Origin: a virus
Reading direction: 5' to 3' (one strand)
Virus record (IMG/VR): IMGVR_UViG_3300031965_000543
Span: 1-11,654 of that record
DNA: 11,654 nucleotides
Under the pieces are notes generated by a model. That model saw only the letters and a list, made by a program, of their open reading frames with translations. It had not been told where the DNA came from and did no database searches. Shown here piece after piece: positions 1 through 11,654 of this stretch. How positions within the stretch are numbered: the stretch's first letter is position 1; each line of letters starts with the position of its first letter. The translations under genes and the position numbers were made by a program.

Positions 1-121
1 AGAGCACCACCCAGAGACAGGAAGACTAAAGATATATGGTAATGATAGTCATGTAGCCGAAGGACTAATAAGAGCCGCACAAATAAGTAAAGAAAAAAGC
101 TTAAATATGTGGATACGCTAA
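1..121 (+). CDS. terL: Terminase large subunit, C-terminal fragment (redundant copy of 11530-11650 created by the terminal overlap)
   Basis: Identical nucleotides to the last ~40 codons of ORF 10418..11650 (...HHPETGRLKIYGNDSHVAEGLIRAAQISKEKSLNMWIR), with stop TAA at 119-121. Confidence 0.85.
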   Translation, partial: EHHPETGRLKIYGNDSHVAEGLIRAAQISKEKSLNMWIR

Positions 122-237: not shown

Positions 238-595
238 TACAGGAATATTTGCAACAACAGCAGAAGTAATGAGAAAAGCAGGTGATGGAGCTAGTACAAC
301 CTCTAATACAGAAGCTTATATTAATGACTTCATAACTCAGGCGGAATCTGAAATTAATGTAGCAACTAGGTTTAATTGGAGTGATGCATACTCTGGACTT
401 AATGCAGATGTAAAAGGAATTCTAAAACAAGCAGCTAGTAATTTAGCGGCTATTTATGTTATTCAATATGATATGAGTGGATTTACAAACAGAGCAGAAG
501 CAGAAAACATGGTCAATATTTTACGTGATGGTTATTTAAGAAACCTAGCAATCCTTAGAGATATAAAAGCACAGGACTTTATGAATGGCGCATGA
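230..595 (+). CDS. Putative head-tail connector/adaptor protein (gp6-like, by eye)
   Basis: 121-aa helical protein. The N-terminal pattern (ATTAEVMRKAG...EAYINDFITQAESEINVATR) resembles phage gp6/gp15-type head-tail connector families, and it sits just after TerL. Not verified by search. Confidence 0.45.
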   Translation: MADTGIFATTAEVMRKAGDGASTTSNTEAYINDFITQAESEINVATRFNWSDAYSGLNADVKGILKQAASNLAAIYVIQYDMSGFTNRAEAENMVNILRDGYLRNLAILRDIKAQDFMNGA

Positions 596-1040
596 CTTTA
601 AAAGATTCCCAGAATTAACAAATAGCCAATTAGATATTTATTATTTCGAAAGTCCTCACAAACAAATATTTGAAGATTTTAGGTGTGAAGTAATAAAGGT
701 TCATGATGGAGATACTATTACTGTTAGATGGTTTGAAAGAGACTTTGACTTTCCAATAAGATTATTAGGTATTGATGCCCCAGAATTAAGCGAAGAAAAA
801 GGAGCTGAAAGTAAGTACTGGTTAGAATCATTAATACTAAATAAAAAAGTAGATATAGAAATAGACCCAAAAAATAGAGTAGAAAAATACGGAAGATTAT
901 TAGGAAATATAATATTTAATGGTATAAACTTAGGTGAAGAAGAAGTAAACTTAGGTAAAGCAAAACCTTTCGCTCAAAGAACAGAAGGAAAAATACCAGA
1001 ATTAAATAAAGAGTTAAGGATATCACAATGGCTGACTTAA
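585..1040 (+). CDS. Staphylococcal nuclease (SNase/thermonuclease)-like nuclease
   Basis: Classic SNase motifs in the translation: HDGDTITV, IRLLGIDAPE (compare SNase RLLLVDTPE), KYGRLLGNI, and GEEEVNLGKAKP near the C-terminus. Confidence 0.85.
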   Translation: MAHDFKRFPELTNSQLDIYYFESPHKQIFEDFRCEVIKVHDGDTITVRWFERDFDFPIRLLGIDAPELSEEKGAESKYWLESLILNKKVDIEIDPKNRVEKYGRLLGNIIFNGINLGEEEVNLGKAKPFAQRTEGKIPELNKELRISQWLT

Positions 1041-1637: not shown

Positions 1638-2735
1638 ATGCCAGAAACAAATATAGAAAACACCGTAGTAACTGATTTAACTAATGCCATTACTGATTTT
1701 TCAGTAGATCAAGAGACTACAGACGCTCCAGGATATGAAGAAGACTTTACATATCAAAATGAGAACTGGTCTAAACAACTAGGATATTATAAAAAAATAC
1801 CAGAGTTAAGAGCGTCTATAGACGCTATAGCAAATTGGACTGTGGGTAATGGTTACGAAGCAGATGAAATAACAACTTTAATTCTAGATAGAGTAAAGGG
1901 TAATGGTAAAGATATATTCAATACAATTTTAGAAAATCAAAGAAGGGTAGCAGAGATAGCAGGAGATAGTTTTGCAGAAATAATAACTAATGATGAAAAT
2001 ATTTTAATTAATCTAAAACCACTAGACCCAAGTACAATTAGAGTGCATTTCAATAGTAAAGGACAAATAAAAAAATATGTTCAAACTACTAAAGTAAAAG
2101 GAAAAAGCAAAGAGCATACATTCAAAGTAGGGGAAATATTTCACTTATCAAGAAATAGAACTGCGGACGAGGCTCATGGTATTAGTGTTGTTGATTCTGT
2201 AGAAGAAATAATATTAATGCGTAATGAAGCTATGACCGATTGGAAAAAAGTACTACATAGAAATGTAGTCCCATTAAGAATTATAGAGATAGATTCAGAT
2301 GATAATACAAAGATAGCGAGTATGAAAGCTGATTATCAGGAAGCAATTAGTAAAGGAGAAGTACTAATAATACCAAAGGGTAATGTAGAGATTAAAGATG
2401 GGGGTATAGCTCCTAACGCAACACTAAATCCTTTACCATGGATAGAACAACTAAATTCATATTATTATCAGGCAGTAGGAGTACCAGACATCATAGTTGG
2501 AGGTAGTAGGGCGTTAACAGAGGCTAGCGCAAAGATAGCATTATTAGCTTACGAAAGAACTATTAGAGCCAATCAATTAGATGTAGAGGAGCAAGTATTA
2601 TCTCAACTAAACTTAGAGATTAAATTACAATTCCCAGTGTCATTAATGAACGAATTATTATCAAGTGTACAACCACAAAAAGAACAGGCAGTAGAATCAA
2701 ATGATTTAACAACGGAGGTAGAAGGTAGAAAATGA
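1638..2735 (+). CDS. Portal protein
   Basis: 365-aa ORF in the head module. Portal-like blocks seen by eye: ELRASIDAIANWTVGNGY, GDSFAEII...LKPLDPSTIRV, IFHLSRNRTADEAHGISVVDSV, acidic C-terminal tail. Not search-verified. Confidence 0.7.
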   Translation: MPETNIENTVVTDLTNAITDFSVDQETTDAPGYEEDFTYQNENWSKQLGYYKKIPELRASIDAIANWTVGNGYEADEITTLILDRVKGNGKDIFNTILENQRRVAEIAGDSFAEIITNDENILINLKPLDPSTIRVHFNSKGQIKKYVQTTKVKGKSKEHTFKVGEIFHLSRNRTADEAHGISVVDSVEEIILMRNEAMTDWKKVLHRNVVPLRIIEIDSDDNTKIASMKADYQEAISKGEVLIIPKGNVEIKDGGIAPNATLNPLPWIEQLNSYYYQAVGVPDIIVGGSRALTEASAKIALLAYERTIRANQLDVEEQVLSQLNLEIKLQFPVSLMNELLSSVQPQKEQAVESNDLTTEVEGRK

Positions 2736-4361: not shown

Positions 4362-4382
4362 GAAACTTTTCCTAAAAGTTTC
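4362..4382. promoter_or_regulatory. Palindrome family copy P1: GAAACTTTT-CCT-AAAAGTTTC (perfect 9-bp arms, centre inverted relative to other copies)
   Basis: Read directly. Lies between the stop of 2946..4352 and the SD/start of 4395..4643. Confidence 0.8.
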
Positions 4383-4852: not shown

Positions 4853-5266
4853 ATGGCATTAGAAGCAACATTAGTTTTTGAAACCGGTTTACCAATTCCT
4901 ATGCAATGTGCAAACGGTACAGGAATAGAGAAAGGGGCTATATTAAAATTATCTGATCCTTTTACTGTAGCAACAGCAGACGGAGATACTGACGCTGTTG
5001 GAGGTATAGCAGCAGAGGAGAAGATAGCTAATGATGGTAAGACTACTATAGCAGTATATAGAGAAGGAATCTTTAAAGGTTTTGCAGGTGCTGCTGGAGT
5101 TATAGTTGGTATGGGTATTATTACTGATGTAAGTACAGGGGCAGCTAATGAATTAGTCGTAGCAGATGTTAACTCAGAACATTTAGTAGGGATTGCTTTA
5201 GAAACAGCAACAGATACAGAATCATTTTTATTTGAATTAAAACCTTTAGGGTTACAACTAGCATAA
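4853..5266 (+). CDS. DUF2190-like head decoration / capsid cement protein candidate
   Basis: 137 aa, Gly/Ala/Val-rich beta pattern (GAILKLSD...AVGGIAAEE...TIAVYREGIF...GIALETA) resembling the DUF2190 family. That family typically sits directly upstream of HK97-type MCP genes. Strong SD AAGGAGAG upstream. Confidence 0.55.
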   Translation: MALEATLVFETGLPIPMQCANGTGIEKGAILKLSDPFTVATADGDTDAVGGIAAEEKIANDGKTTIAVYREGIFKGFAGAAGVIVGMGIITDVSTGAANELVVADVNSEHLVGIALETATDTESFLFELKPLGLQLA

Positions 5267-5284
5267 GCTTTTAGGAAAAGATTA
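5264..5284. promoter_or_regulatory. Palindrome family copy P2: TAAGCTTTT-AGG-AAAAGATTA (8/9 arm pairs)
   Basis: Read directly. Its first TAA is the stop codon of 4853..5266, and it ends 8 nt before the MCP start. Confidence 0.75.
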
Positions 5285-5291
5285 ATAGAAG

Positions 5292-6191
5292 ATGGCAGAT
5301 ACAAGCGGACAAGCAGACATTAGAGGATTAGACGTAGATAAATTAGCAAAGGGATTTGCTGAAGAAGATTTAGTATTAAAGAATTTTTGTAATGTATCAT
5401 CTACATCTGCAAGGGAAATCAGATGGTATCAGAAGACAGCAGGATTTATAACAGGAACTACAACTTCGGGAATGACCTCAGAGTTAATAGCTTTAGGTGC
5501 TAATAAAGCTATAGCTAGTGTAGCTGAGCAATCATGGACTAGAAATACAAGTTATGTAAGACAATATTTTGTAGAGTCTCCAACTATTTCAAATGCAGAT
5601 ATCAAAGATACAGATATAGATATCTTAGCTGCTAATATAAGAGATTTAACAAGATCAGTAAATAATCAAGTTGATAAAAGAATTTATGATGTTATAACTG
5701 ATAATGTTTCTGGAACTCCTTTTGATGGGAGCACAGTTACTTCTAACGCTGCAACTGCAGACGGATGGGATGACACAGTTACAGGAGATCCTATTAAAGA
5801 TTTGATGTTAGCTAAAACAACAATAAGATTACAAAGTTATAATCCAGAAGGAGCAATATTATATATTCATCCTACAGAACATTCTAATTTATTACAATAT
5901 TTAATAAGTGTTAAAGGAAGTAGTATCCCTCAATTTTCTAGTCAAAAAGTAATGAGTGGAGTGGTTATGGAAATTCTAGGATTAAATGTAGCTGTGAGTG
6001 CTAACGCAACTACTGATTATGCTGTTGTATTTGTACCGAAAGTAGCGTGTACATGGAAACAATTTACTCCTATAACTGCAGTATCTATTAATGATCCAGG
6101 CATAGGAACTAAGATAAGAGTATGGGAAGAGGGAGAAGCAATCTTAACAGATCCTAATGCGGTCTGCGGAATAACTGATACGGTGGTATAA
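5292..6191 (+). CDS. Major capsid protein (HK97-fold candidate)
   Basis: 299-aa ORF in the canonical position after the scaffold-like and decoration-like genes. Size and sequence texture (ISNADIKDTDIDILAANIRDLTRSVNNQVDKRIY; C-terminal ILTDPNAVCGI) are consistent with phage capsid family proteins. Not search-verified. Confidence 0.7.
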   Translation: MADTSGQADIRGLDVDKLAKGFAEEDLVLKNFCNVSSTSAREIRWYQKTAGFITGTTTSGMTSELIALGANKAIASVAEQSWTRNTSYVRQYFVESPTISNADIKDTDIDILAANIRDLTRSVNNQVDKRIYDVITDNVSGTPFDGSTVTSNAATADGWDDTVTGDPIKDLMLAKTTIRLQSYNPEGAILYIHPTEHSNLLQYLISVKGSSIPQFSSQKVMSGVVMEILGLNVAVSANATTDYAVVFVPKVACTWKQFTPITAVSINDPGIGTKIRVWEEGEAILTDPNAVCGITDTVV

Positions 6192-6193
6192 AT

Positions 6194-6361
6194 ATGACAT
6201 TACAAACTTGTTATAAAAGGTTAGAAATTGCAAAAGCTTCAAATAATCAGAAACAGGTTAAATTATGGGAAGAAAGAATTAAAAGAAAAGAATCCAAATA
6301 TAAAGAAACTGAAATTTATGATGTTCCTAAAAACTCCAATGGTAAGAAATCAAAGAGATGA
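6194..6361 (+). CDS. Hypothetical small protein (55 aa), not in the supplied ORF track
   Basis: Hand translation from ATG 6194 (2 nt after the MCP stop): MTLQTCYKRLEIAKASNNQKQVKLWEERIKRKESKYKETEIYDVPKNSNGKKSKR, stop TGA 6359-6361. It competes with the TTG-started 5' part of track ORF 6228..6509, which is in another frame. Confidence 0.35.
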   Translation: MTLQTCYKRLEIAKASNNQKQVKLWEERIKRKESKYKETEIYDVPKNSNGKKSKR

Positions 6362-6509
6362 AGGAAAAGGTAGTTATACAGTAACAAATCATTCTGTAGA
6401 CAGAGCTTTAGATTGTAATGGAGATGATGATTTAGCAACTGCGGATGTTCTAGGATCATTAATTGCAGATCTAATTGAAGCTGGAATTATTAAAGGTAGT
6501 GTAAGTTAA
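6318..6509 (+). CDS. Hypothetical protein (start uncertain: ATG 6318, 6321 or 6339; the track calls TTG 6228)
   Basis: The C-terminal part (SYTVTNHSVDRALDCNGDDDLATADVLGSLIADLIEAGIIKGSVS) looks protein-like. The 5' extension to TTG 6228 is K-rich, overlaps the ATG-started ORF 6194..6361, and lacks an RBS. Confidence 0.4.
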   Translation: MMFLKTPMVRNQRDEGKGSYTVTNHSVDRALDCNGDDDLATADVLGSLIADLIEAGIIKGSVS

Positions 6510-6539
6510 TTATTTAAATAAGTAAATTAAATTAATTCT

Positions 6540-6692
6540 ATGGCAAATACATACAATCAAAAAGAACTTAAAACTAAATGGCCTATCACCTCAGGACTAA
6601 TTGCTGGGAGTACTAAACAAAAAGGAAGAAGATCTACTCTCGTACCAGAACGTGGTAGTTTAGTTCCTAGTAGAAAGAAGATAGGTGTATAA
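6540..6692 (+). CDS. Hypothetical small basic protein (50 aa), not in the supplied ORF track
   Basis: Hand translation from ATG 6540: MANTYNQKELKTKWPITSGLIAGSTKQKGRRSTLVPERGSLVPSRKKIGV, stop TAA 6690-6692, 1 nt before ATG 6694. It fills an otherwise empty gap. No obvious SD. Confidence 0.3.
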   Translation: MANTYNQKELKTKWPITSGLIAGSTKQKGRRSTLVPERGSLVPSRKKIGV

Positions 6693-6693
6693 T

Positions 6694-7047
6694 ATGGCTT
6701 ACAACAAAACAAGTCATATTCTAAATAGATTAACAGGTAGAAATAAAGCCGTTAAACCTAAATTTGAAACAGAAACTAGAACACCTATAGGAACAGACTT
6801 ATATCTACCTAATAACTCAGGAGTTAAGAGATCTCTTCAAGAGAAAGATCTAAGTTTTAATTGTCTGGAATTAACTGGAAGTGGAGGCTCTGAAATTAAT
6901 AGCGATATAAATTTCAATGGAGATATTAAAGTAAATGATACTACAGCAGTATCTGGTTATTTCGATGATGGAGTTAACTTTAGAATAACAGTTGTCAAGG
7001 GCATTATAACAGCCATAGAGGATAGTTCTGGGGCGGGTCATTCTTAA
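6694..7047 (+). CDS. Hypothetical protein, possible tail/fibre component
   Basis: The track ORF starts at GTG 6685, but ATG 6694 (MAYNKTSH...) directly follows the upstream stop and matches the MA- start seen in many genes here. Its stop is 1 nt before the next gene. Function guessed from its position in front of the lectin-like protein. Confidence 0.6.
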   Translation: MAYNKTSHILNRLTGRNKAVKPKFETETRTPIGTDLYLPNNSGVKRSLQEKDLSFNCLELTGSGGSEINSDINFNGDIKVNDTTAVSGYFDDGVNFRITVVKGIITAIEDSSGAGHS

Positions 7048-7048
7048 T

Positions 7049-8113
7049 ATGCCTGAGCCATCTTTATCTAATAAAACGTATCTCTGGGAGTTTAAAGATA
7101 GTACTGGTTATGTTATAAACTCAGCTATAACATTCGAAGATAATGGAGAAGGAGCTAGATTAGGTTATACTGAGGCTTTATTAGGAGACATAGTAGAAGA
7201 TTTAGATGATAATGATTTTAGTAATTGGTTTAGTGATGATACAGCAACACAAGATCTTTCATTAAAAAGATTTGGGGTAAGCTCTGCTAAATTTGAAAGC
7301 TCTGTTAATGATGATAGTCAACTCAATCTGGGTGGGGGAGTATCCTCAGGAACTGCTACCTCATATTTATTCTATGATAATGGAGCGTTAGGTACTACAA
7401 ATAGGATAATCCAGCTTAAGAATGGGGTTAATGGGAGGATATTCTTCTTTGGATACAGACCCTCTACATCTAATACAAATTATTCTTATAGATCTGATGG
7501 AGCTTGGATAGATTCTGGAATCGTAAGATCTGTTGGGTGGCACGACATAAAATATCTAGTTAATAACACAACAGGAACAGTATGTTATTTGGATGGACAG
7601 CAACTATTCAGTAATGCTGTTTTAATATCACATCCTGAGATATTTGCTGTTGTAACAAATACTATAAATCAACCATTATGGATAGATAGAATATTACATA
7701 ATAGGGCAATTCCTGGATTATATGTCCCTACTGGAGATCTAATAACTGCTGATGTGTTTCCTACTCGGGTTATTAGATGGCTAAGTAGAAGCTTTAGTAT
7801 TAGCTCTGATGATTATTGGAGAAATAATAAAAGTAATGTAGTTTTAAGTTTTAAAGCTAGTACTGATGGAGGGCTCTCATGGGGTACTAATTCTCCTAAT
7901 TATAATGATGATAATTATTCTGGGCTAAATGATAATAATTTAAAAAATATTAAATGTGATGGGGATGGCTTAGATGGGATTAGAATAAGAATAACTTTAA
8001 ATATATTTGCTGAAAAACAGCAAAGCCCTTTAATAAATCAATTAACTTTAAGTTATGCGGATAGTTCTAAACTTTATGATGCTAAACTTTATGATGCTAA
8101 TTTAGGATGTTAA
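7049..8113 (+). CDS. Putative receptor-binding / tail-fibre protein with a jelly-roll (LamG/concanavalin-like) central region
   Basis: 354 aa. The central segment (TSYLFYDNGALG...RIFFFGYRP...GWHDIKYLVNNTTGTVCYLDGQQLFSN) resembles LamG/ConA-like lectin folds. It is the last gene of the structural block. The C-terminus carries a KLYDA tandem duplication. Confidence 0.6.
   Translation: MPEPSLSNKTYLWEFKDSTGYVINSAITFEDNGEGARLGYTEALLGDIVEDLDDNDFSNWFSDDTATQDLSLKRFGVSSAKFESSVNDDSQLNLGGGVSSGTATSYLFYDNGALGTTNRIIQLKNGVNGRIFFFGYRPSTSNTNYSYRSDGAWIDSGIVRSVGWHDIKYLVNNTTGTVCYLDGQQLFSNAVLISHPEIFAVVTNTINQPLWIDRILHNRAIPGLYVPTGDLITADVFPTRVIRWLSRSFSISSDDYWRNNKSNVVLSFKASTDGGLSWGTNSPNYNDDNYSGLNDNNLKNIKCDGDGLDGIRIRITLNIFAEKQQSPLINQLTLSYADSSKLYDAKLYDANLGC
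8067..8100 (+). repeat. 15-bp tandem repeat (ctaaactttatgatg x2.3) at the 3' end of the receptor-binding candidate
   Basis: Units at 8067-8081 and 8082-8096 plus a partial unit at 8097-8100. Encodes ...KLYDAKLYDA... Confidence 0.9.
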
Positions 8114-8114
8114 A

Positions 8115-8135
8115 TAAGCTTTTAGAAAAAGCTTA
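8115..8135. promoter_or_regulatory. Palindrome family copy P3: TAAGCTTTT-AGA-AAAAGCTTA (perfect 9-bp arms), followed by an extra half-site AAAAGCTT at 8139-8146
   Basis: Read directly. Begins 2 nt after the stop of 7049..8113. Confidence 0.8.
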
Positions 8136-8281: not shown

Positions 8282-8749
8282 ATGAAAAAAATTATAACAA
8301 AAATTAGTGCTATAGACAATACAAAAAAAGATAGAAATGGTAAGCCTTATTTAAGGATACAATTAGAAGAAGATAATTCTTGGCATAGCGTGTTCAGAGA
8401 AGGGCACAAAGTAGACGCAATTCAGAGTTTAAATAACAATACTAAGGTTGAAGTTACTTTAGAGCAGAATGGAAATTACATTAATATATTAGATATTTCT
8501 CCAATAATTGAAGAAGAGCTAGTAGTTAACCCTATAGAGCCAGAGAAAGAGTTTAAACCTATAGAGAATAAACCTTTATTTAGAAGACATGAAGATAAAG
8601 ACTATAATATGTGGCTTAGTACTAGGTTAAGCTATGCAAAGGATATATATTGTGAAGCTATGAAGCAAAACAACAATACGTATTCTATAGATCACTGCGT
8701 TAAGTTGATATTGCATGCAGAAGAGTTACTAAAAGAGAGGAGCTTATAA
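8282..8749 (+). CDS. Hypothetical protein; N-terminal beta-rich (possible OB-fold) domain plus C-terminal helical domain
   Basis: 155 aa with strong AGGAGG SD. The N-terminus (KISAIDNTKKDRNGKPYLRIQLEEDNSWHSVF...KVEVTLEQNGNYINILDI) looks like a small beta-barrel, so nucleic-acid binding is a guess only. Confidence 0.65.
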   Translation: MKKIITKISAIDNTKKDRNGKPYLRIQLEEDNSWHSVFREGHKVDAIQSLNNNTKVEVTLEQNGNYINILDISPIIEEELVVNPIEPEKEFKPIENKPLFRRHEDKDYNMWLSTRLSYAKDIYCEAMKQNNNTYSIDHCVKLILHAEELLKERSL

Positions 8750-8770
8750 GAAAATAAAGGAGGAATTGAT

Positions 8771-9238
8771 ATGAAAAACAATTGTATAGATATACCAGAA
8801 TTAAACATAAGTGTAGAAAAAGAAGTCCATGATAAAGGAAAATCATGGGATGAGTTAGGTTTAGATTACAACAGAAAATACTTATTAACAGCAGAAGAGT
8901 GTATTTGGTTAGCTAATTCTAAATATGCTAAGATACTAAAAATGGATGGAAACTCTTCACAGGATGATTTCTTCATCCAACAGCCATTTAATAAGAATAA
9001 AGACTTTGACTATATCGCGGGGTTCTGCGCCTACTCTGGCGGGGCTAACCTCGATTGCGGCGGGGATTCGGCTTACTCGAATTCTGGGCTCGGGGTAAGA
9101 TTCAAAAAGAAGCTTTTAGGAAAAGCTTCACCAAAAGAAGCTTTTAGGAAAAGCTTCAAGGAAAGGGTGAAGGTTTGTGGTTTTGGGGTGACTCACCTCT
9201 TTTTTCCACGCCTCTTAGGCCTTCACCCCCTTAAATAA
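8771..9238 (+). CDS. Hypothetical protein; the 3' third is compositionally aberrant (GC-rich codons, then read-through of palindromic repeats and a hairpin+T6)
   Basis: AGGAGG SD and an AT-rich 5' two-thirds look like a normal gene. From ~9017 the codons switch to GCG/GGG/GGC/CTC/TCG (52/81 G+C by hand count). 9105-9158 is a 26-nt repeat translated in two different frames. The extent of the true CDS is uncertain. Confidence 0.5.
   Translation: MKNNCIDIPELNISVEKEVHDKGKSWDELGLDYNRKYLLTAEECIWLANSKYAKILKMDGNSSQDDFFIQQPFNKNKDFDYIAGFCAYSGGANLDCGGDSAYSNSGLGVRFKKKLLGKASPKEAFRKSFKERVKVCGFGVTHLFFPRLLGLHPLK
9105..9158. repeat. Tandem pair of palindrome family copies P4 (9109-9129) and P5 (9137-9157): GAAGCTTTT-AGG-AAAAGCTTC, within 26-nt direct repeats at a 28-bp period
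   Basis: aaaagaagcttttaggaaaagcttca at 9105-9130 and 9133-9158, identical. Each contains perfect 9-bp inverted arms. Confidence 0.9.
9165..9228 (+). other. GC-rich long stem-loop: GGGTGAAGG (9165-9173) pairs with CCTTCACCC (9220-9228); inner GTGG/CCAC pairing
   Basis: Reverse-complement pairs checked by hand. The element encloses the hairpin+T6 at 9185-9205. Confidence 0.5.
9185..9205 (+). terminator. Intrinsic-terminator-like hairpin GGGGTG-act-CACCTC followed by T6
   Basis: 6-bp stem (one G-T pair) at 9185-9199 and TTTTTT at 9200-9205. It lies ~30 nt before the stop codon of ORF 8771..9238, which is atypical. Confidence 0.35.
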
Positions 9239-9256
9239 GCTTTTAAGAAAAGATTC
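9236..9256. promoter_or_regulatory. Palindrome family copy P6: TAAGCTTTT-AAG-AAAAGATTC (7/9 arm pairs; same AAAAGATT variant arm as P2)
   Basis: Read directly. Its first TAA is the stop codon of 8771..9238. Confidence 0.7.
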
Positions 9257-9324
9257 ATATGAGCGTTACGATAACGTATTCAAAGGAACAAGCACTATGC
9301 CAACATTTAAATACTTTAAAATAT

Positions 9325-9351
9325 AAATTCACATAGTGAATTTACATAGTG
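9325..9351. promoter_or_regulatory. Inverted repeat AAATTCAC-ata-GTGAATTT overlapping a direct repeat of ACATAGTG (9331-9338 and 9344-9351)
   Basis: Read directly. Operator-like architecture in the ORF-free region. Confidence 0.6.
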
Positions 9352-9390
9352 CCTAATTCTCGACTAGTTCTTAAGTACTTTGAATATAGA

Positions 9391-9420
9391 GGGGTTTTAC
9401 GGGGTTTTAGGTGTTTTAGT
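9391..9420. repeat. Three 10-bp phased tandem repeats GGGGTTTTAC / GGGGTTTTAG / GTGTTTTAGT
   Basis: Read directly. T4 tracts are phased at one helical turn, giving iteron-like or bent-DNA character. Confidence 0.85.
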
Positions 9421-9440
9421 ACACGGGTATGGTAATAACA

Positions 9441-9461
9441 GAAACTTTTAGAAAAAGTTTC
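9441..9461. promoter_or_regulatory. Palindrome family copy P7: GAAACTTTT-AGA-AAAAGTTTC (perfect 9-bp arms, same A:T variant as P1)
   Basis: Read directly. It immediately precedes the GC-rich hairpin cluster. Confidence 0.8.
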
Positions 9462-9616
9462 ACTGGCTCGTAGCGTTGGGACGCTACTTCGCTGTGCTAT
9501 GTGGCGAGGATTCACCTCAAGCTCCTCTCCTCGCAGTAGCCCCCCCGCTCTCGCTGCCCCCCGCTGGGGGGCCAGACACTTGGCGAGTAGCTTGCCACTA
9601 CTCGCGGAACTAACCA
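9462..9616. ncRNA. GC-rich cluster of four consecutive perfect hairpins: candidate structured ncRNA or cis-acting origin/packaging element (strand undetermined)
   Basis: Four hairpins: 9470-9487 (GTAGCGT/tggg/ACGCTAC), 9504-9534 (GCGAGGA...TCCTCGC), 9556-9572 (GCCCCCC/gct/GGGGGGC), 9583-9605 (GCGAGTAG/cttgcca/CTACTCGC). 43/60 G+C at 9541-9600 versus 17/60 in a typical coding line. Only low-complexity ORFs overlap it. Confidence 0.35.
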
Positions 9617-9662
9617 ACCCCACCCACCCACCACATCCCACCGCCCACCCACCCACCCACCC
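9617..9662 (-). repeat. (CCCA)n on + strand / (GGGT)n on - strand: G-quadruplex / i-motif-forming tract
   Basis: + strand: accccacccacccaccacatcccaccgcccacccacccacccaccc. The minus strand of 9644-9662 reads GGGTGGGTGGGTGGGTGGG, five G3 runs with 1-nt loops. Confidence 0.85.
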
Positions 9663-9722
9663 TAATGTTTATAATATAATGAGTCTTAATAGGTTTTTTT
9701 TGTGTGTTATCAGGAGTTAACA

Positions 9723-9734
9723 GAAAAATTTTTC
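9723..9734. repeat. Perfect A5/T5 palindrome GAAAAATTTTTC
   Basis: Read directly. A nearby hairpin ATAGGC-tttttatg-GCCTAT lies at 9742-9761. Confidence 0.7.
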
Positions 9735-9766
9735 ATATTTTATAGGCTTTTTATGGCCTATTTCGT

Positions 9767-9829
9767 AATCTCCATAGGAAAAGTAGGTTCTGGAGTATAT
9801 AGAAATCTCCATAGGAAGCGAAGGTTCTG
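9767..9829. repeat. Two 26-bp direct repeats at a 37-bp period (AATCTCCATAGGAA + AGGTTCTG core)
   Basis: 9767-9792 is aatctccataggaaaagtaggttctg. 9804-9829 is aatctccataggaagcgaaggttctg. The first 14 nt and the last 8 nt are identical. Confidence 0.85.
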
Positions 9830-9926
9830 TGATAGGTAGAGAGTCTGTAGTATCAAAATAGGTGTTTTCGGGTAACCTACGTTTCCAGTGGAGAAATATT
9901 GGTTTAACAATACATACCTATATATA

Positions 9927-9940
9927 TACTTACGTAAGTA
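9927..9940. promoter_or_regulatory. Perfect 14-bp palindrome TACTTACGTAAGTA
   Basis: Reverse complement checked by hand. It shares GTAAGTAC (9934-9941) with a second copy at 9981-9988. Confidence 0.8.
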
Positions 9941-9946
9941 CAAGTA

Positions 9947-9969
9947 TAGTAGTAGTAGTAGTAGTAGTA
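9947..9969. repeat. Trinucleotide microsatellite (TAG)7 plus TA
   Basis: tagtagtagtagtagtagtagta read directly. It lies ~40 nt upstream of the start codon at 10010. Confidence 0.95.
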
Positions 9970-9985
9970 ATTTAATAAGTGTAAG

Positions 9986-9995
9986 TACGTACGTA
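9986..9995. promoter_or_regulatory. Perfect 10-bp palindrome TACGTACGTA abutting the SD of gene 10010..10204
   Basis: Read directly. GGAGG at 10000-10004 follows, then a 5-nt spacer and ATG 10010. Confidence 0.75.
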
Positions 9996-10009
9996 GGATG
10001 GAGGTTAAA

Positions 10010-10204
10010 ATGAAAAAACATTACAATTTATATCTAAGCATAAACAAAATAGAGCCATTAAAAGAAGAAGGAATTAATATTTCTAGATTAATAGATAATG
10101 CTCTTTCTGATATTTCAGAACAAAAACCACTTATAAGAAGAATAGCAGAACTAGAAGAACAAAATAAACAAATGAAATGGGCTATAAAGAGGTTACAAAG
10201 ATGA
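10010..10204 (+). CDS. Ribbon-helix-helix-like DNA-binding protein with C-terminal coiled coil (regulator or small-terminase candidate)
   Basis: Start moved from the track ATG 9998 to ATG 10010 because GGAGG (10000-10004) sits 5 nt upstream. MKKHYNLYLSINKIEPLKEEGINISRLIDNALSD fits a beta-strand/helix/helix pattern, followed by IRRIAELEEQNKQMKWAIKRLQ. Confidence 0.55.
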   Translation: MKKHYNLYLSINKIEPLKEEGINISRLIDNALSDISEQKPLIRRIAELEEQNKQMKWAIKRLQR

Positions 10205-10428
10205 ATAATACTAGACTAGAAAAATGGGGACATACTTTAATAATGAAAAATCCCCCTAAAAGATGTTCAAAATGTGGAATAAATTTAGTACCACCTTTTC
10301 AATTTTGTAAAGAATTTGAAAAAGGATTCTGTGAAAATTGTGAAAAGGGAACATCTAAAAGACTATGTTATAGTATGGAAGAAGAACATGAACACTTTAA
10401 CATCATAAAAATAGAAGATGAATCTTGA
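10201..10428 (+). CDS. Zinc-ribbon protein (CxxC...CxxC)
   Basis: The in-frame ATG 10201 overlaps the upstream stop as ATGA, with AGAGG 8 nt upstream (the track start at 10177 is less likely). Motifs CSKCG and CENCEKG. Confidence 0.6.
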   Translation: MNNTRLEKWGHTLIMKNPPKRCSKCGINLVPPFQFCKEFEKGFCENCEKGTSKRLCYSMEEEHEHFNIIKIEDES

Positions 10429-11650
10429 TAAATGGCAAGAAGAAGTACTAGCTACAAAGGGCAACATTTGCCTACGATCTGGTAGACAAGTAGGAAAATC
10501 TACTATTATAGGTTTGAAAGCAGCTCAATATGCTTTAGAAACTCCTGATAAACTTATTATGGTTATATCTAAGACAGAAAGACAAGCAGGACTACTATTT
10601 GCTAAAATTCTTAGAAATATTAATAATATTGATAGAAAACAAATAGAAAAGGGAAAATTAAGACCTACAAAACATCTTATTAACTTAAAGAACAAATCTC
10701 AAATACATTGCCTTCCAGCGGGTGATACGGGCTATGGGATTATGGGATTTACAATTGATCTACTAATTGCTGATGAAGCAGCATTCATCCCTGAAGAAGT
10801 TTGGAATAGTGTAATACCAGCTTTAGCAGTTACAGGGGGAGATATTTGGCTATTATCAACACCATTTGTTAAAAAAGGATATTATTATAATTGTTTTTCA
10901 GATCCTACCTTTACTTCATTCCATACAAGCAGCGAAGATTGTCCTAGAATATCAAAAGAATTCTTAGAACACAAAAGAAATACAATTACTAAAGCCCAAT
11001 ATGCACAGATGTATTTAGGTAAGTTTGTAGATGAAGTAAGACAATTCTTTTCTGATGAACTAATAAGAAGAACTTGTACCCTAAAAAGAAGAACTAAAAT
11101 TGGAGTAGGAGATTATGGCCTAGGTTGTGATGTAGCTAGAATGGATAGAGATGAATTTACTTATGAAATTATAGAAAGAATAAGATCAGATTATTTAGAA
11201 CAAGTAGAAAATATAATAACTAAAGACATTCCCCTACCAGAAAGTACCAGAAGAATTTTACACCTAAACCAGATATATGATTTTAAGAAAATATACATAG
11301 ATTCCGGAGGGATGGGGATTGCAGTTTGTGATATGTTAAAAGAGATCCCAGATATGAAATATAAAGTAGTTGAAATAAATAATGCACAGAGAATTTATGA
11401 TAAAGAAGAAAGAAAGAAGAAACTCATAAAGGAAGATCTTTACAATCATTTAAAGTCATTAATGGAAAATAGAAAAATAAAATTGTTAGATGATGATGAA
11501 GTAAAAGCTTCTCTTAAAGGTATACAAGCAGAGCACCACCCAGAGACAGGAAGACTAAAGATATATGGTAATGATAGTCATGTAGCCGAAGGACTAATAA
11601 GAGCCGCACAAATAAGTAAAGAAAAAAGCTTAAATATGTGGATACGCTAA
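10418..11650 (+). CDS. terL: Terminase large subunit
   Basis: 410 aa. Walker A-like RSGRQVGKST, Walker B LLIADEAAF, coupling motif LLSTP. RNase-H-like nuclease half with GCDVARMDRDEF, IYIDSGGMGIAV and GNDSHVAEGLIRA. Confidence 0.9.
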   Translation: MNLDKWQEEVLATKGNICLRSGRQVGKSTIIGLKAAQYALETPDKLIMVISKTERQAGLLFAKILRNINNIDRKQIEKGKLRPTKHLINLKNKSQIHCLPAGDTGYGIMGFTIDLLIADEAAFIPEEVWNSVIPALAVTGGDIWLLSTPFVKKGYYYNCFSDPTFTSFHTSSEDCPRISKEFLEHKRNTITKAQYAQMYLGKFVDEVRQFFSDELIRRTCTLKRRTKIGVGDYGLGCDVARMDRDEFTYEIIERIRSDYLEQVENIITKDIPLPESTRRILHLNQIYDFKKIYIDSGGMGIAVCDMLKEIPDMKYKVVEINNAQRIYDKEERKKKLIKEDLYNHLKSLMENRKIKLLDDDEVKASLKGIQAEHHPETGRLKIYGNDSHVAEGLIRAAQISKEKSLNMWIR

Positions 11651-11654
11651 GATA
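11530..11654. repeat. Terminal direct repeat, copy 2 (exact duplicate of 1-125)
   Basis: Same comparison as copy 1. The repeat lies inside the TerL coding sequence plus 4 nt past its stop codon. Confidence 0.95.

Follow-up and report, generated by a model that had tools for sequence, protein, structure and literature searches.

The window analyzed here is the whole of a virus record in IMG/VR, IMGVR_UViG_3300031965_000543 (11,654 nt), which CheckV rates as 100% complete. Bases 1 to 125 are repeated exactly at 11530-11654, and this 125-nt terminal repeat encloses a unit genome of ~11.5 kb with a base composition of 33% GC and 39% A. All credible genes of the window lie on the plus strand. The last gene before an ORF-free control region of 770 nt is the open reading frame (ORF) 8771-9238, which a sequence-only reading had singled out as a compositional chimera. 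In this work, the ORF was examined as a candidate target gene of a diversity-generating retroelement (DGR), a system in which a reverse transcriptase (RT) and a template repeat (TR) rewrite a variable region (VR). Its parts, all on the plus strand, are as follows.

8759-8763, plus strand: Shine-Dalgarno-like GGAGG, read from the sequence, 7 nt before the ATG at 8771.
8771-9013, plus strand: residues 1-81, the N-terminal two-thirds of the predicted lectin-fold domain, conserved in 120 homologues and written in AT-rich codons.
9014-9094, plus strand: codons 82-108, the candidate DGR-type VR, carrying the GCGGGG motifs and collinear with the 80-nt TR/VR homology of four loci (L010, L004, L006, and L007).
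9092-9103, plus strand: G-rich 3' boundary of the VR, encoding GVRF, a 12-nt block with two or fewer differences in eight homologous VRs.
9104-9136, plus strand: Lys-rich tail of 11 codons, matching the whole C-terminal tail of homologues in length and character.
9137-9235, plus strand: extension of 33 codons with no counterpart in any homologue, overlying a palindrome, a large stem, and a terminator-like hairpin.

The first 246 nt of the ORF are typical of the genome, with an A content of 0.43 and a GC content of 0.29, as the sequence-only reading had described for the first ~245 nt. Between 9017 and 9097, GC content rises to 0.64 (52/81 G+C, the same count as reported earlier) and A content falls to 0.11. 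In 81-nt windows taken outside 8930-9700, the mean GC content was 0.32 (standard deviation, 0.055; maximum, 0.53) and the mean A content was 0.40 (standard deviation, 0.069), so that the patch deviates with z = +5.8 for GC and z = -4.2 for A. Codons containing A make up 6 of the 26 in the patch, compared to 79% genome-wide (binomial P = 2e-9). The motif GCGGGG was found at 9017, 9039, and 9060, and TCGGGG was found at 9090, in agreement with the earlier description. The three GCGGGG motifs fall on codons 83-84, 90-92, and 97-99, and TCGGGG is the G-rich 3' boundary of the VR. Their spacing had been interpreted as a 21- to 22-bp phase of the DNA. The spacing of 21 to 22 nt is real, but it is not kept in eight homologous VRs. 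A distance of 21 nt equals seven codons; it comes from those variable codons that happen to be GGC or GGG here and does not point to a periodic signal in the DNA.

Among 5.8 billion proteins searched, at least 251 homologues of the ORF 8771-9238 protein were found, which are 130 to 160 amino acids long and 60 to 71% identical to it over residues ~5 to 115. None of the 251 covered its C-terminal tail. Those with names or from named records belonged to DPANN-type archaea (Pacearchaeota, Nanoarchaeia, and an unclassified "archaeon" metagenome-assembled genome [MAG]), with one further homologue from an Omnitrophota MAG and two from IMG/VR records. The family is therefore found mainly in DPANN-type archaeal MAGs and also in mobile elements. 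No match was obtained when the ORF protein was searched against Pfam, PHROGs, and NCBIfam, when 19 family members were searched against Pfam, or when PDB sequences were searched with a profile. A single-protein scan of viral contigs also found nothing.

Conservation was assessed from alignments of 19 and of 120 sequences. Residues 7-82 were almost invariant in both. Over residues 83-107, invariant columns are interleaved with highly variable ones, with entropies of about 0 bits versus 1.5 to 3 bits among the 120 homologues. Residues A83, F85, S89, A92, L94, C96, S100, S103, S105, and L107 are invariant or nearly so, and 14 columns (84, 86, 88, 90, 91, 93, 95, 97-99, 101, 102, 104, and 106) are hypervariable. 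The latter are occupied by D, Y, G, N, V, S, C, or F and, at columns 84 and 98, by R, G, or W. Further downstream, G108, V109, and R110 are invariant in the 120 sequences, F111 is nearly so, and the Lys at residue 114 is nearly invariant. The GC-rich patch is hence coding and represents the most characteristic part of the family. Conservation of the C terminus at the protein level, which according to the sequence-only reading would mark the whole ORF as a normal coding sequence, extended to about residue 114 and was not seen beyond about residue 122. The viral copy is an outlier within the family. It lacks the usual N-terminal 20 to 25 residues and deviates from the consensus in 10 of the 74 near-invariant columns, compared to a median of 1.

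Genes of this family stand next to DGR cassettes. The TR/VR analysis covered L010, L004, L006, and L007, four loci from three source records that together provide eight TR/VR pairs. In each of the four, an RT is located no more than a few kb from the homologue. In L010, L007, and L006, the RT match (PF00078) is found upstream of the homologue at a distance of about 1 kb or less, and the end of the RT ORF is separated from the next target ORF by 25 nt in L010 and by 53 nt in L007. For L004, a TR and two VRs were mapped, and an RT is present on the same contig. The RTs beside the homologues contain the motifs LGNYTSQ, which we take to be the DGR-type version of the RT active-site region, and YVDD. 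RTs of the DGR clade carry (I/L/V)GxxxSQ in place of the group II QGxxxSP, in addition to YxDD. In all four loci, an 80-nt TR was found upstream of the RT region, with a gap of about 25 to 30 nt between the end of the TR and the RT ORF in L010 and L007. Each locus contains two VRs, which sit in two tandem paralogous target genes. Comparison of TRs with their VRs revealed that 101 of 114 mismatches are on template adenines, and four of the eight pairs are 100% A specific. The pairs comprise 180 template adenines, of which 101 are altered in the VRs: 74 became G, 27 became T, and C was never seen. The A-containing TR codons, 14 in number (AGG, TAT, AAY, and GAY), correspond exactly to the 14 hypervariable columns of the protein family. 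For example, codons 84 and 98 are AGG in the templates, and codons 90 and 97 are AAY (GAT at codon 90 in some); in the window, G stands in place of A in these codons. A search for a PF05635/Avd-like gene in the records behind L010 and L004 returned none. The spectrum of substitutions looks strongly skewed; a change of A to C does not appear to be impossible, as some family members have Thr at column 106.

Several of the records that carry these genes merit description. A complete Avd-less DGR is present at 7985-10217 of L010, an IMG/VR record of 22.5 kb with terminal repeats, and consists of the following parts.

L010 7985-8064: TR.
L010 8088-9146: RT.
L010 9171-9644: lectin-fold target, first of the tandem pair.
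L010 9777-10217: lectin-fold target, second of the tandem pair.

Upstream of this cassette, on the opposite strand, an ORF at 6287-7228 shows weak similarity to STAND NTPases (E 2e-4). An 11.8-kb MAG contig binned as "bacterium" (L005) gave the same BLAST hits as L010, which match in identity and length and are shifted by a constant offset, and it contains the same VR and downstream sequence. This sameness makes either the element or the bin assignment questionable. One archaeal MAG contains three such cassettes. An IMG/VR record of 39.5 kb (G005) holds three A-poor copies of VR type (L011, L042, and L045) that are 90 to 94% identical to each other.

39.5-kb record, 2-108, minus strand: VR-type copy.
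39.5-kb record, 508-615, plus strand: VR-type copy.
39.5-kb record, 39259-39369, plus strand: VR-type copy.

This record was considered as a possible second RT-less virus, and neither an RT nor an A-rich template was found in it. Its contig begins in one VR and ends ~180 nt past another, and its cassette may simply be unassembled.

The base composition of the patch is what such a system would be expected to produce. In a DGR, the RNA of the TR is copied by the RT with random misincorporation opposite adenines, and the resulting cDNA overwrites the VR. Residues of the scaffold can stay constant only if their codons contain no adenine, which accounts for a scaffold free of A. Diversified residues are encoded as AAY, AGG, TAT, or GAY in the template, and the VR mostly shows these codons with G or T substituted. 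Together, adenine avoidance and rewriting of A to G or T would yield an A-poor, G-rich island with odd codons in a genome of this composition. This agrees with the observations. None of the 11 scaffold codons contains A, either in the window or in any of the eight homologous loci, and the choice of synonymous codons varies among the loci. Based on the genome's own codon usage, the chance of 11 A-free scaffold codons in the window alone is about 4e-5. Across the nine VRs, A content ranges from 0.05 to 0.15 versus 0.38 to 0.47 upstream in the same gene, and GC content ranges from 0.46 to 0.65 versus 0.25 to 0.32. The VR of the window is the most GC-rich among the nine, and the composition switches at the same codon in all eight homologous loci. 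The suspicion of the sequence-only reading that an effect at the level of the nucleic acid was at work here proved justified: the switch is the signature of a DGR VR.

The 3' end of the VR was also compared. In DGRs, the initiation of mutagenic homing site at the 3' end of a VR (IMH) differs from its counterpart at the end of the TR (IMH*). The TRs diverge from the 12-nt GVRF block at non-A positions. The block of the window is one base off the commonest form of the homologous VRs, and the sequence beyond it differs from that of the homologues. In about a third of DGRs, an inverted repeat downstream of the IMH forms a cruciform that enhances homing. Two perfect AT-rich palindromes begin 5 nt past the GVRF block in the window. 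A role as a DGR cruciform was considered and set aside as unlikely, as five other copies of the palindrome are unrelated to any VR. Of the features expected in a target protein, the window gene exhibits a C-terminal VR, an interleaved scaffold, A-free scaffold codons, a lectin-like fold in the model, and diversified homologues. Those of a complete DGR, namely, RT, TR, and Avd, were not found in the window.

An AlphaFold2 model of the protein was built on the 120-sequence alignment and reached a predicted local distance difference test (pLDDT) value of 62.5, which corresponds to moderate confidence. The mean values of 10-residue blocks over residues 121-150 were only 41 to 48. A wide (exhaustive) structural search with VIA-align returned only folds of the C-type lectin/FGE-like type, over residues 1-117, with Z values that lie in the middling range of this tool. 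The top match was the C-terminal domain of Bdellovibrio Bd2740 (Z 8.5). Others included CD72 (Z 6.9), Treponema TvpA (2y3c; Z 6.3), Bordetella phage Mtd (1yu0; Z 6.3), and Legionella Lcl (Z 6.3). Mtd and TvpA are classic DGR variable proteins. A Foldseek search against PDB gave weak matches, with the Bd2740 domain (E 4e-3) and C-type lectin domains at the top, and unrelated Hsp90 chains were among the weaker rows. According to the model, the product of ORF 8771-9238 is a single domain folded like a C-type lectin.

The C-terminal tail differs from the rest of the protein. In 119 homologues, GVRF is followed by a median of 10 residues (range, 4 to 21), mostly Lys, versus 44 in the window. The identical 26-mers at 9105-9130 and 9133-9158, which had been noticed before, are indeed read in different frames, and they contain two copies of a palindrome of 21 nt with a 9-bp stem and a 3-nt loop. 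This palindrome occurs seven times in the window, and no matches are expected by chance (200 shuffles). Its copies and the neighboring structures are the following.

4362-4382: palindrome, no more than 10 nt from a stop codon.
5264-5284: palindrome, with the stop TAA of the preceding gene as its first three bases.
8115-8135: palindrome, no more than 10 nt from a stop codon, also starting with TAA.
9109-9129: palindrome (copy 4), inside ORF 8771-9238.
9137-9157: palindrome, inside ORF 8771-9238, with an in-frame GAA at the position of the TAA.
9164-9230, plus strand: long imperfect stem with 9-nt arms at 9164-9172 and 9222-9230, enclosing the hairpin at 9185-9199 and the T6 tract.
9185-9205, plus strand: hairpin with a 6-bp stem (9185-9199) followed by T6 (9200-9205).
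9236-9256: palindrome (copy 6), with the stop TAA of the ORF (9236-9238) as its first three bases.
9441-9461: palindrome.

The GAA at 9137 lies 99 nt, or 33 codons, upstream of the real stop and in the same register. If it were TAA, as at 5264 and 9236, the protein would be 122 amino acids long and have a tail typical of the family. With GAA in its place, translation would continue through intergenic hairpins to the palindrome at 9236. The RNA of 9000-9270 folds with z = -3.7, and none of the 200 shuffles folded as well; the signal comes from the palindromes downstream of 9104. The hairpin with T6 at 9185-9205, correctly placed inside the ORF by the sequence-only reading, is the only terminator-like site on the plus strand between 8000 and 10100. 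On the minus strand, the palindromes at 9109 and 9137 score as hairpin-plus-T-run terminators. The palindromes resemble the intercistronic and 3'-end RNA hairpins of small phages, which are stem-loops of an intrinsic-terminator-like or mRNA-stabilizing kind, in being positioned at or close to stop codons at four sites, with one hairpin followed by T6. Unlike such hairpins, the palindromes have no downstream T-run on the plus strand, and two copies are located inside an ORF. Judged from the sequence, the protein proper probably ends near codon 122, the last 33 codons would be read-through over intergenic hairpins, and the tail may well be nonfunctional.

We conclude with good confidence that 9014-9094 is a DGR-type VR of a lectin-fold target, most likely a captured and static orphan, and that the last 33 codons are probably read-through. 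Other explanations have been put forward for the patch or can be conceived. The sequence-only reading had suggested that the gene captured foreign GC-rich sequence, that is, a private insertion or fusion by which foreign DNA was joined to an AT-rich gene. The abrupt switch at 9014-9017 is suggestive of such a junction, and the gene as a whole looks horizontally acquired, being absent from 22 related viruses. However, the GC-rich part is collinear with the homologues and carries their invariant scaffold, which a private insertion cannot explain, and the same switch occurs at the same codon in eight homologous loci. We give this explanation next to no credence. It had alternatively been proposed that the true protein ends before the patch, with 9017-9238 being an open frame over cis-acting elements such as phased G-runs or G-quadruplexes. 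G-runs are present at 9019, 9041, 9062, and 9092, and 9000-9270 folds better than all shuffled sequences. But the G-runs coincide with variable codons 84, 90/91, and 97/98 and with the G-rich boundary of the VR, their positions vary in the homologous VRs, and the fold signal originates past 9104. Furthermore, no stop codon precedes the patch, and protein-level conservation spans residues 83-111 in 120 homologues, including the invariant G108, V109, and R110. The proposal is contradicted for 9017-9103 and is barely believable for the region as a whole. What stands of it is a shorter protein in the sense that the last ~33 codons (9137-9235) are absent in homologues, and cis-acting elements are a viable reading only for 9137-9238.

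It is also conceivable that a binding surface under ordinary diversifying selection gave rise to the variable columns, that no retroelement was involved in this lineage, and that the A-poor composition was inherited and is irrelevant. The virus has neither RT nor TR, and the surface of a lectin fold is a plausible target in an arms race. Point mutation and selection, though, would not hold 11 scaffold codons free of A over nine loci while their synonyms change, nor would they confine the differences between TRs and VRs to template adenines. We therefore regard this possibility as very unlikely.

A number of results weigh against the preferred explanation. No RT (RVT_1) match at E <= 10 was found in the closed 11,654-nt record, no second VR copy or TR exists on either strand of the window, and no Avd-like gene (PF05635) was detected in it, so that any DGR activity on this copy would be hypothetical. 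Degenerate VR/TR patterns that contained its fixed bases had no match in IMG/VR or in 241 million metagenome records. The four known TRs show 14 to 18 non-A differences to the VR of the window, which rules out each of them as its template. Only one near-identical genome is on record, an ENA assembly of 11,669 nt; its VR is the same and its protein differs only by R110S, which gives no sign of ongoing diversification. Moreover, the fold rests on a model of moderate confidence (pLDDT 62.5) with Z of 6 to 8.5, the tool's middling range. As for the tail, no in-frame stop precedes 9236, and it is translated if ribosomes get there. The R110S exchange (protein P0002 of the ENA assembly) lies in the otherwise invariant GVRF block and requires that the last A of an AGA codon be altered.

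The target gene is absent from 22 related viruses, and no RT was found in the five of them whose records were searched. ORF 8771-9238 is the only gene common to the window and the DGR-bearing loci. To find a closer donor, 401 genomes from the phylum to which one homologue-bearing MAG belongs were searched, and close copies were found only in that MAG. Since the gene is common to DGR elements and missing from the relatives of the virus, we infer that a DGR target gene was captured horizontally into the variable end of the structural module, which probably serves host recognition. The virus would have taken it from a DGR-bearing cell or element. The VR would now be an orphan, most likely a recently captured and currently static copy. 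A long static history is at odds with a scaffold that is still perfectly free of A and with a GC content that exceeds those of the other eight VRs although the genome is strongly A/T biased.

Less likely, the VR is rewritten in trans. A DGR of the host or of a co-infecting element would recognize the conserved G-rich 3' boundary and diversify the viral VR during infection. The GVRF block of the window is one base away from the commonest form in cassette-bearing VRs, and the A-free scaffold and high GC content despite the A/T bias fit continued rewriting equally as well as recent capture. RT, TR, and Avd are able to act in trans, remote targets have been documented (PMC5758913), and three such cassettes occur in one archaeal MAG. 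On the other hand, the pattern scans of IMG/VR and metagenomes revealed no cognate template, the VR is identical in the second assembly of the virus, and it has been argued that phage-borne systems should lack remote targets because target and RT would not be co-inherited (PMC5758913). On balance, we consider rewriting in trans to be rather improbable and prefer recent capture.

The remaining genome, apparently that of a small tailed virus, contains a terminase-portal-capsid block with the following genes.

1638-2735, plus strand: portal protein.
5292-6191, plus strand: HK97-type capsid protein.
10418-11650, plus strand: large terminase (TerL).

The 22 related viruses, represented by contigs of 3.7 to 12.7 kb with complete genomes of about 10 to 12.7 kb, have this block in common with the window (TerL, 51 to 73% identical). 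The genes at 7049-8113 and 8282-8749, upstream of ORF 8771, are absent from all 22 and had no counterpart in Pfam or PHROGs. They and ORF 8771 make up a lineage-specific block, located distally in the structural module, with a possible role in host recognition. A tRNA scan of the window and an Rfam search of the whole window at E <= 1 gave no match, and neither did blastn of 8700-10100 against 50,697 phage records.

A second GC-rich island at 9463-9665 comprises hairpins of 68% GC followed by a C-rich tract on the plus strand. It was rejected as a VR-linked template or structured RNA because it does not resemble the VR and yields fold z-scores of -1.7 and -1.4. Islands of a similar build, not alignable in sequence, are found in several related viruses roughly 400 to 1,900 nt upstream of TerL.

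L024 1381-1560: GC-rich island.
L029 421-610: GC-rich island.
L030 1431-1630: GC-rich island.
L032 3251-3530: GC-rich island.
L033 1111-1390: GC-rich island.
L034 2171-2380: GC-rich island.
L035 2011-2460: GC-rich island.

The island of the window has the appearance of a control, origin, or packaging element shared by the whole family.

The lectin fold of archaeal DGR targets has been established (PMC5006420). Like Mtd (1yu0), TvpA (2y3c), and the variable proteins of archaea and archaeal viruses (PMC5006420), the window protein has its VR at the extreme C terminus of a lectin-fold domain. It also shares with the Mtd/TvpA class an invariant scaffold that alternates with AAY-type-templated positions and a G-rich 3' boundary, and the model aligns to Mtd and TvpA over about 110 residues with Z 6.3. 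In contrast to that class, it is much smaller, with the lectin domain of about 120 amino acids alone, it has no detectable sequence similarity to PDB chains or Pfam, and its genome contains no RT, TR, or Avd anywhere. Avd-less TR-RT-target cassettes (architecture A1, Wu et al. 2018) are common in candidate phyla radiation (CPR) bacteria and DPANN archaea (PMC5758913), so an Avd gene is not a strictly defining feature of a DGR. This architecture is seen for the homologues in L010 and L007, where two tandem targets immediately follow the RT ORF, and L004 and L006 share the arrangement of a TR plus two VRs, whereas the window holds the target gene only and the cassette is missing. DGR targets located away from the RT are known, for example, seven extra targets in Treponema (PMC5758913), and the VR gene of the window is likewise away from any RT or TR. 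Known remote targets, however, share a genome with their RT. The window is a complete, terminally redundant replicon of 11.5 kb without one, and any RT would accordingly have to be supplied by a different genome.

The anomaly in composition goes back to a well-known mechanism, the DGR; the unusual point is a closed, RT-less viral genome of 11.5 kb with a DGR target. The homologues define an unannotated lectin-fold family of at least 251 members that serves as a DGR target. An A-depleted, G-rich 3' island in a small gene of an AT-rich genome can flag a DGR VR without a nearby RT. Large surveys of DGRs state that they cannot detect targets away from the RT (PMC8144416), so that orphan copies are undercounted. 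If the viral VR is indeed rewritten in trans, the virus would borrow the hypermutation machinery of another genome to vary its binding protein, or a host DGR would scramble a viral gene.

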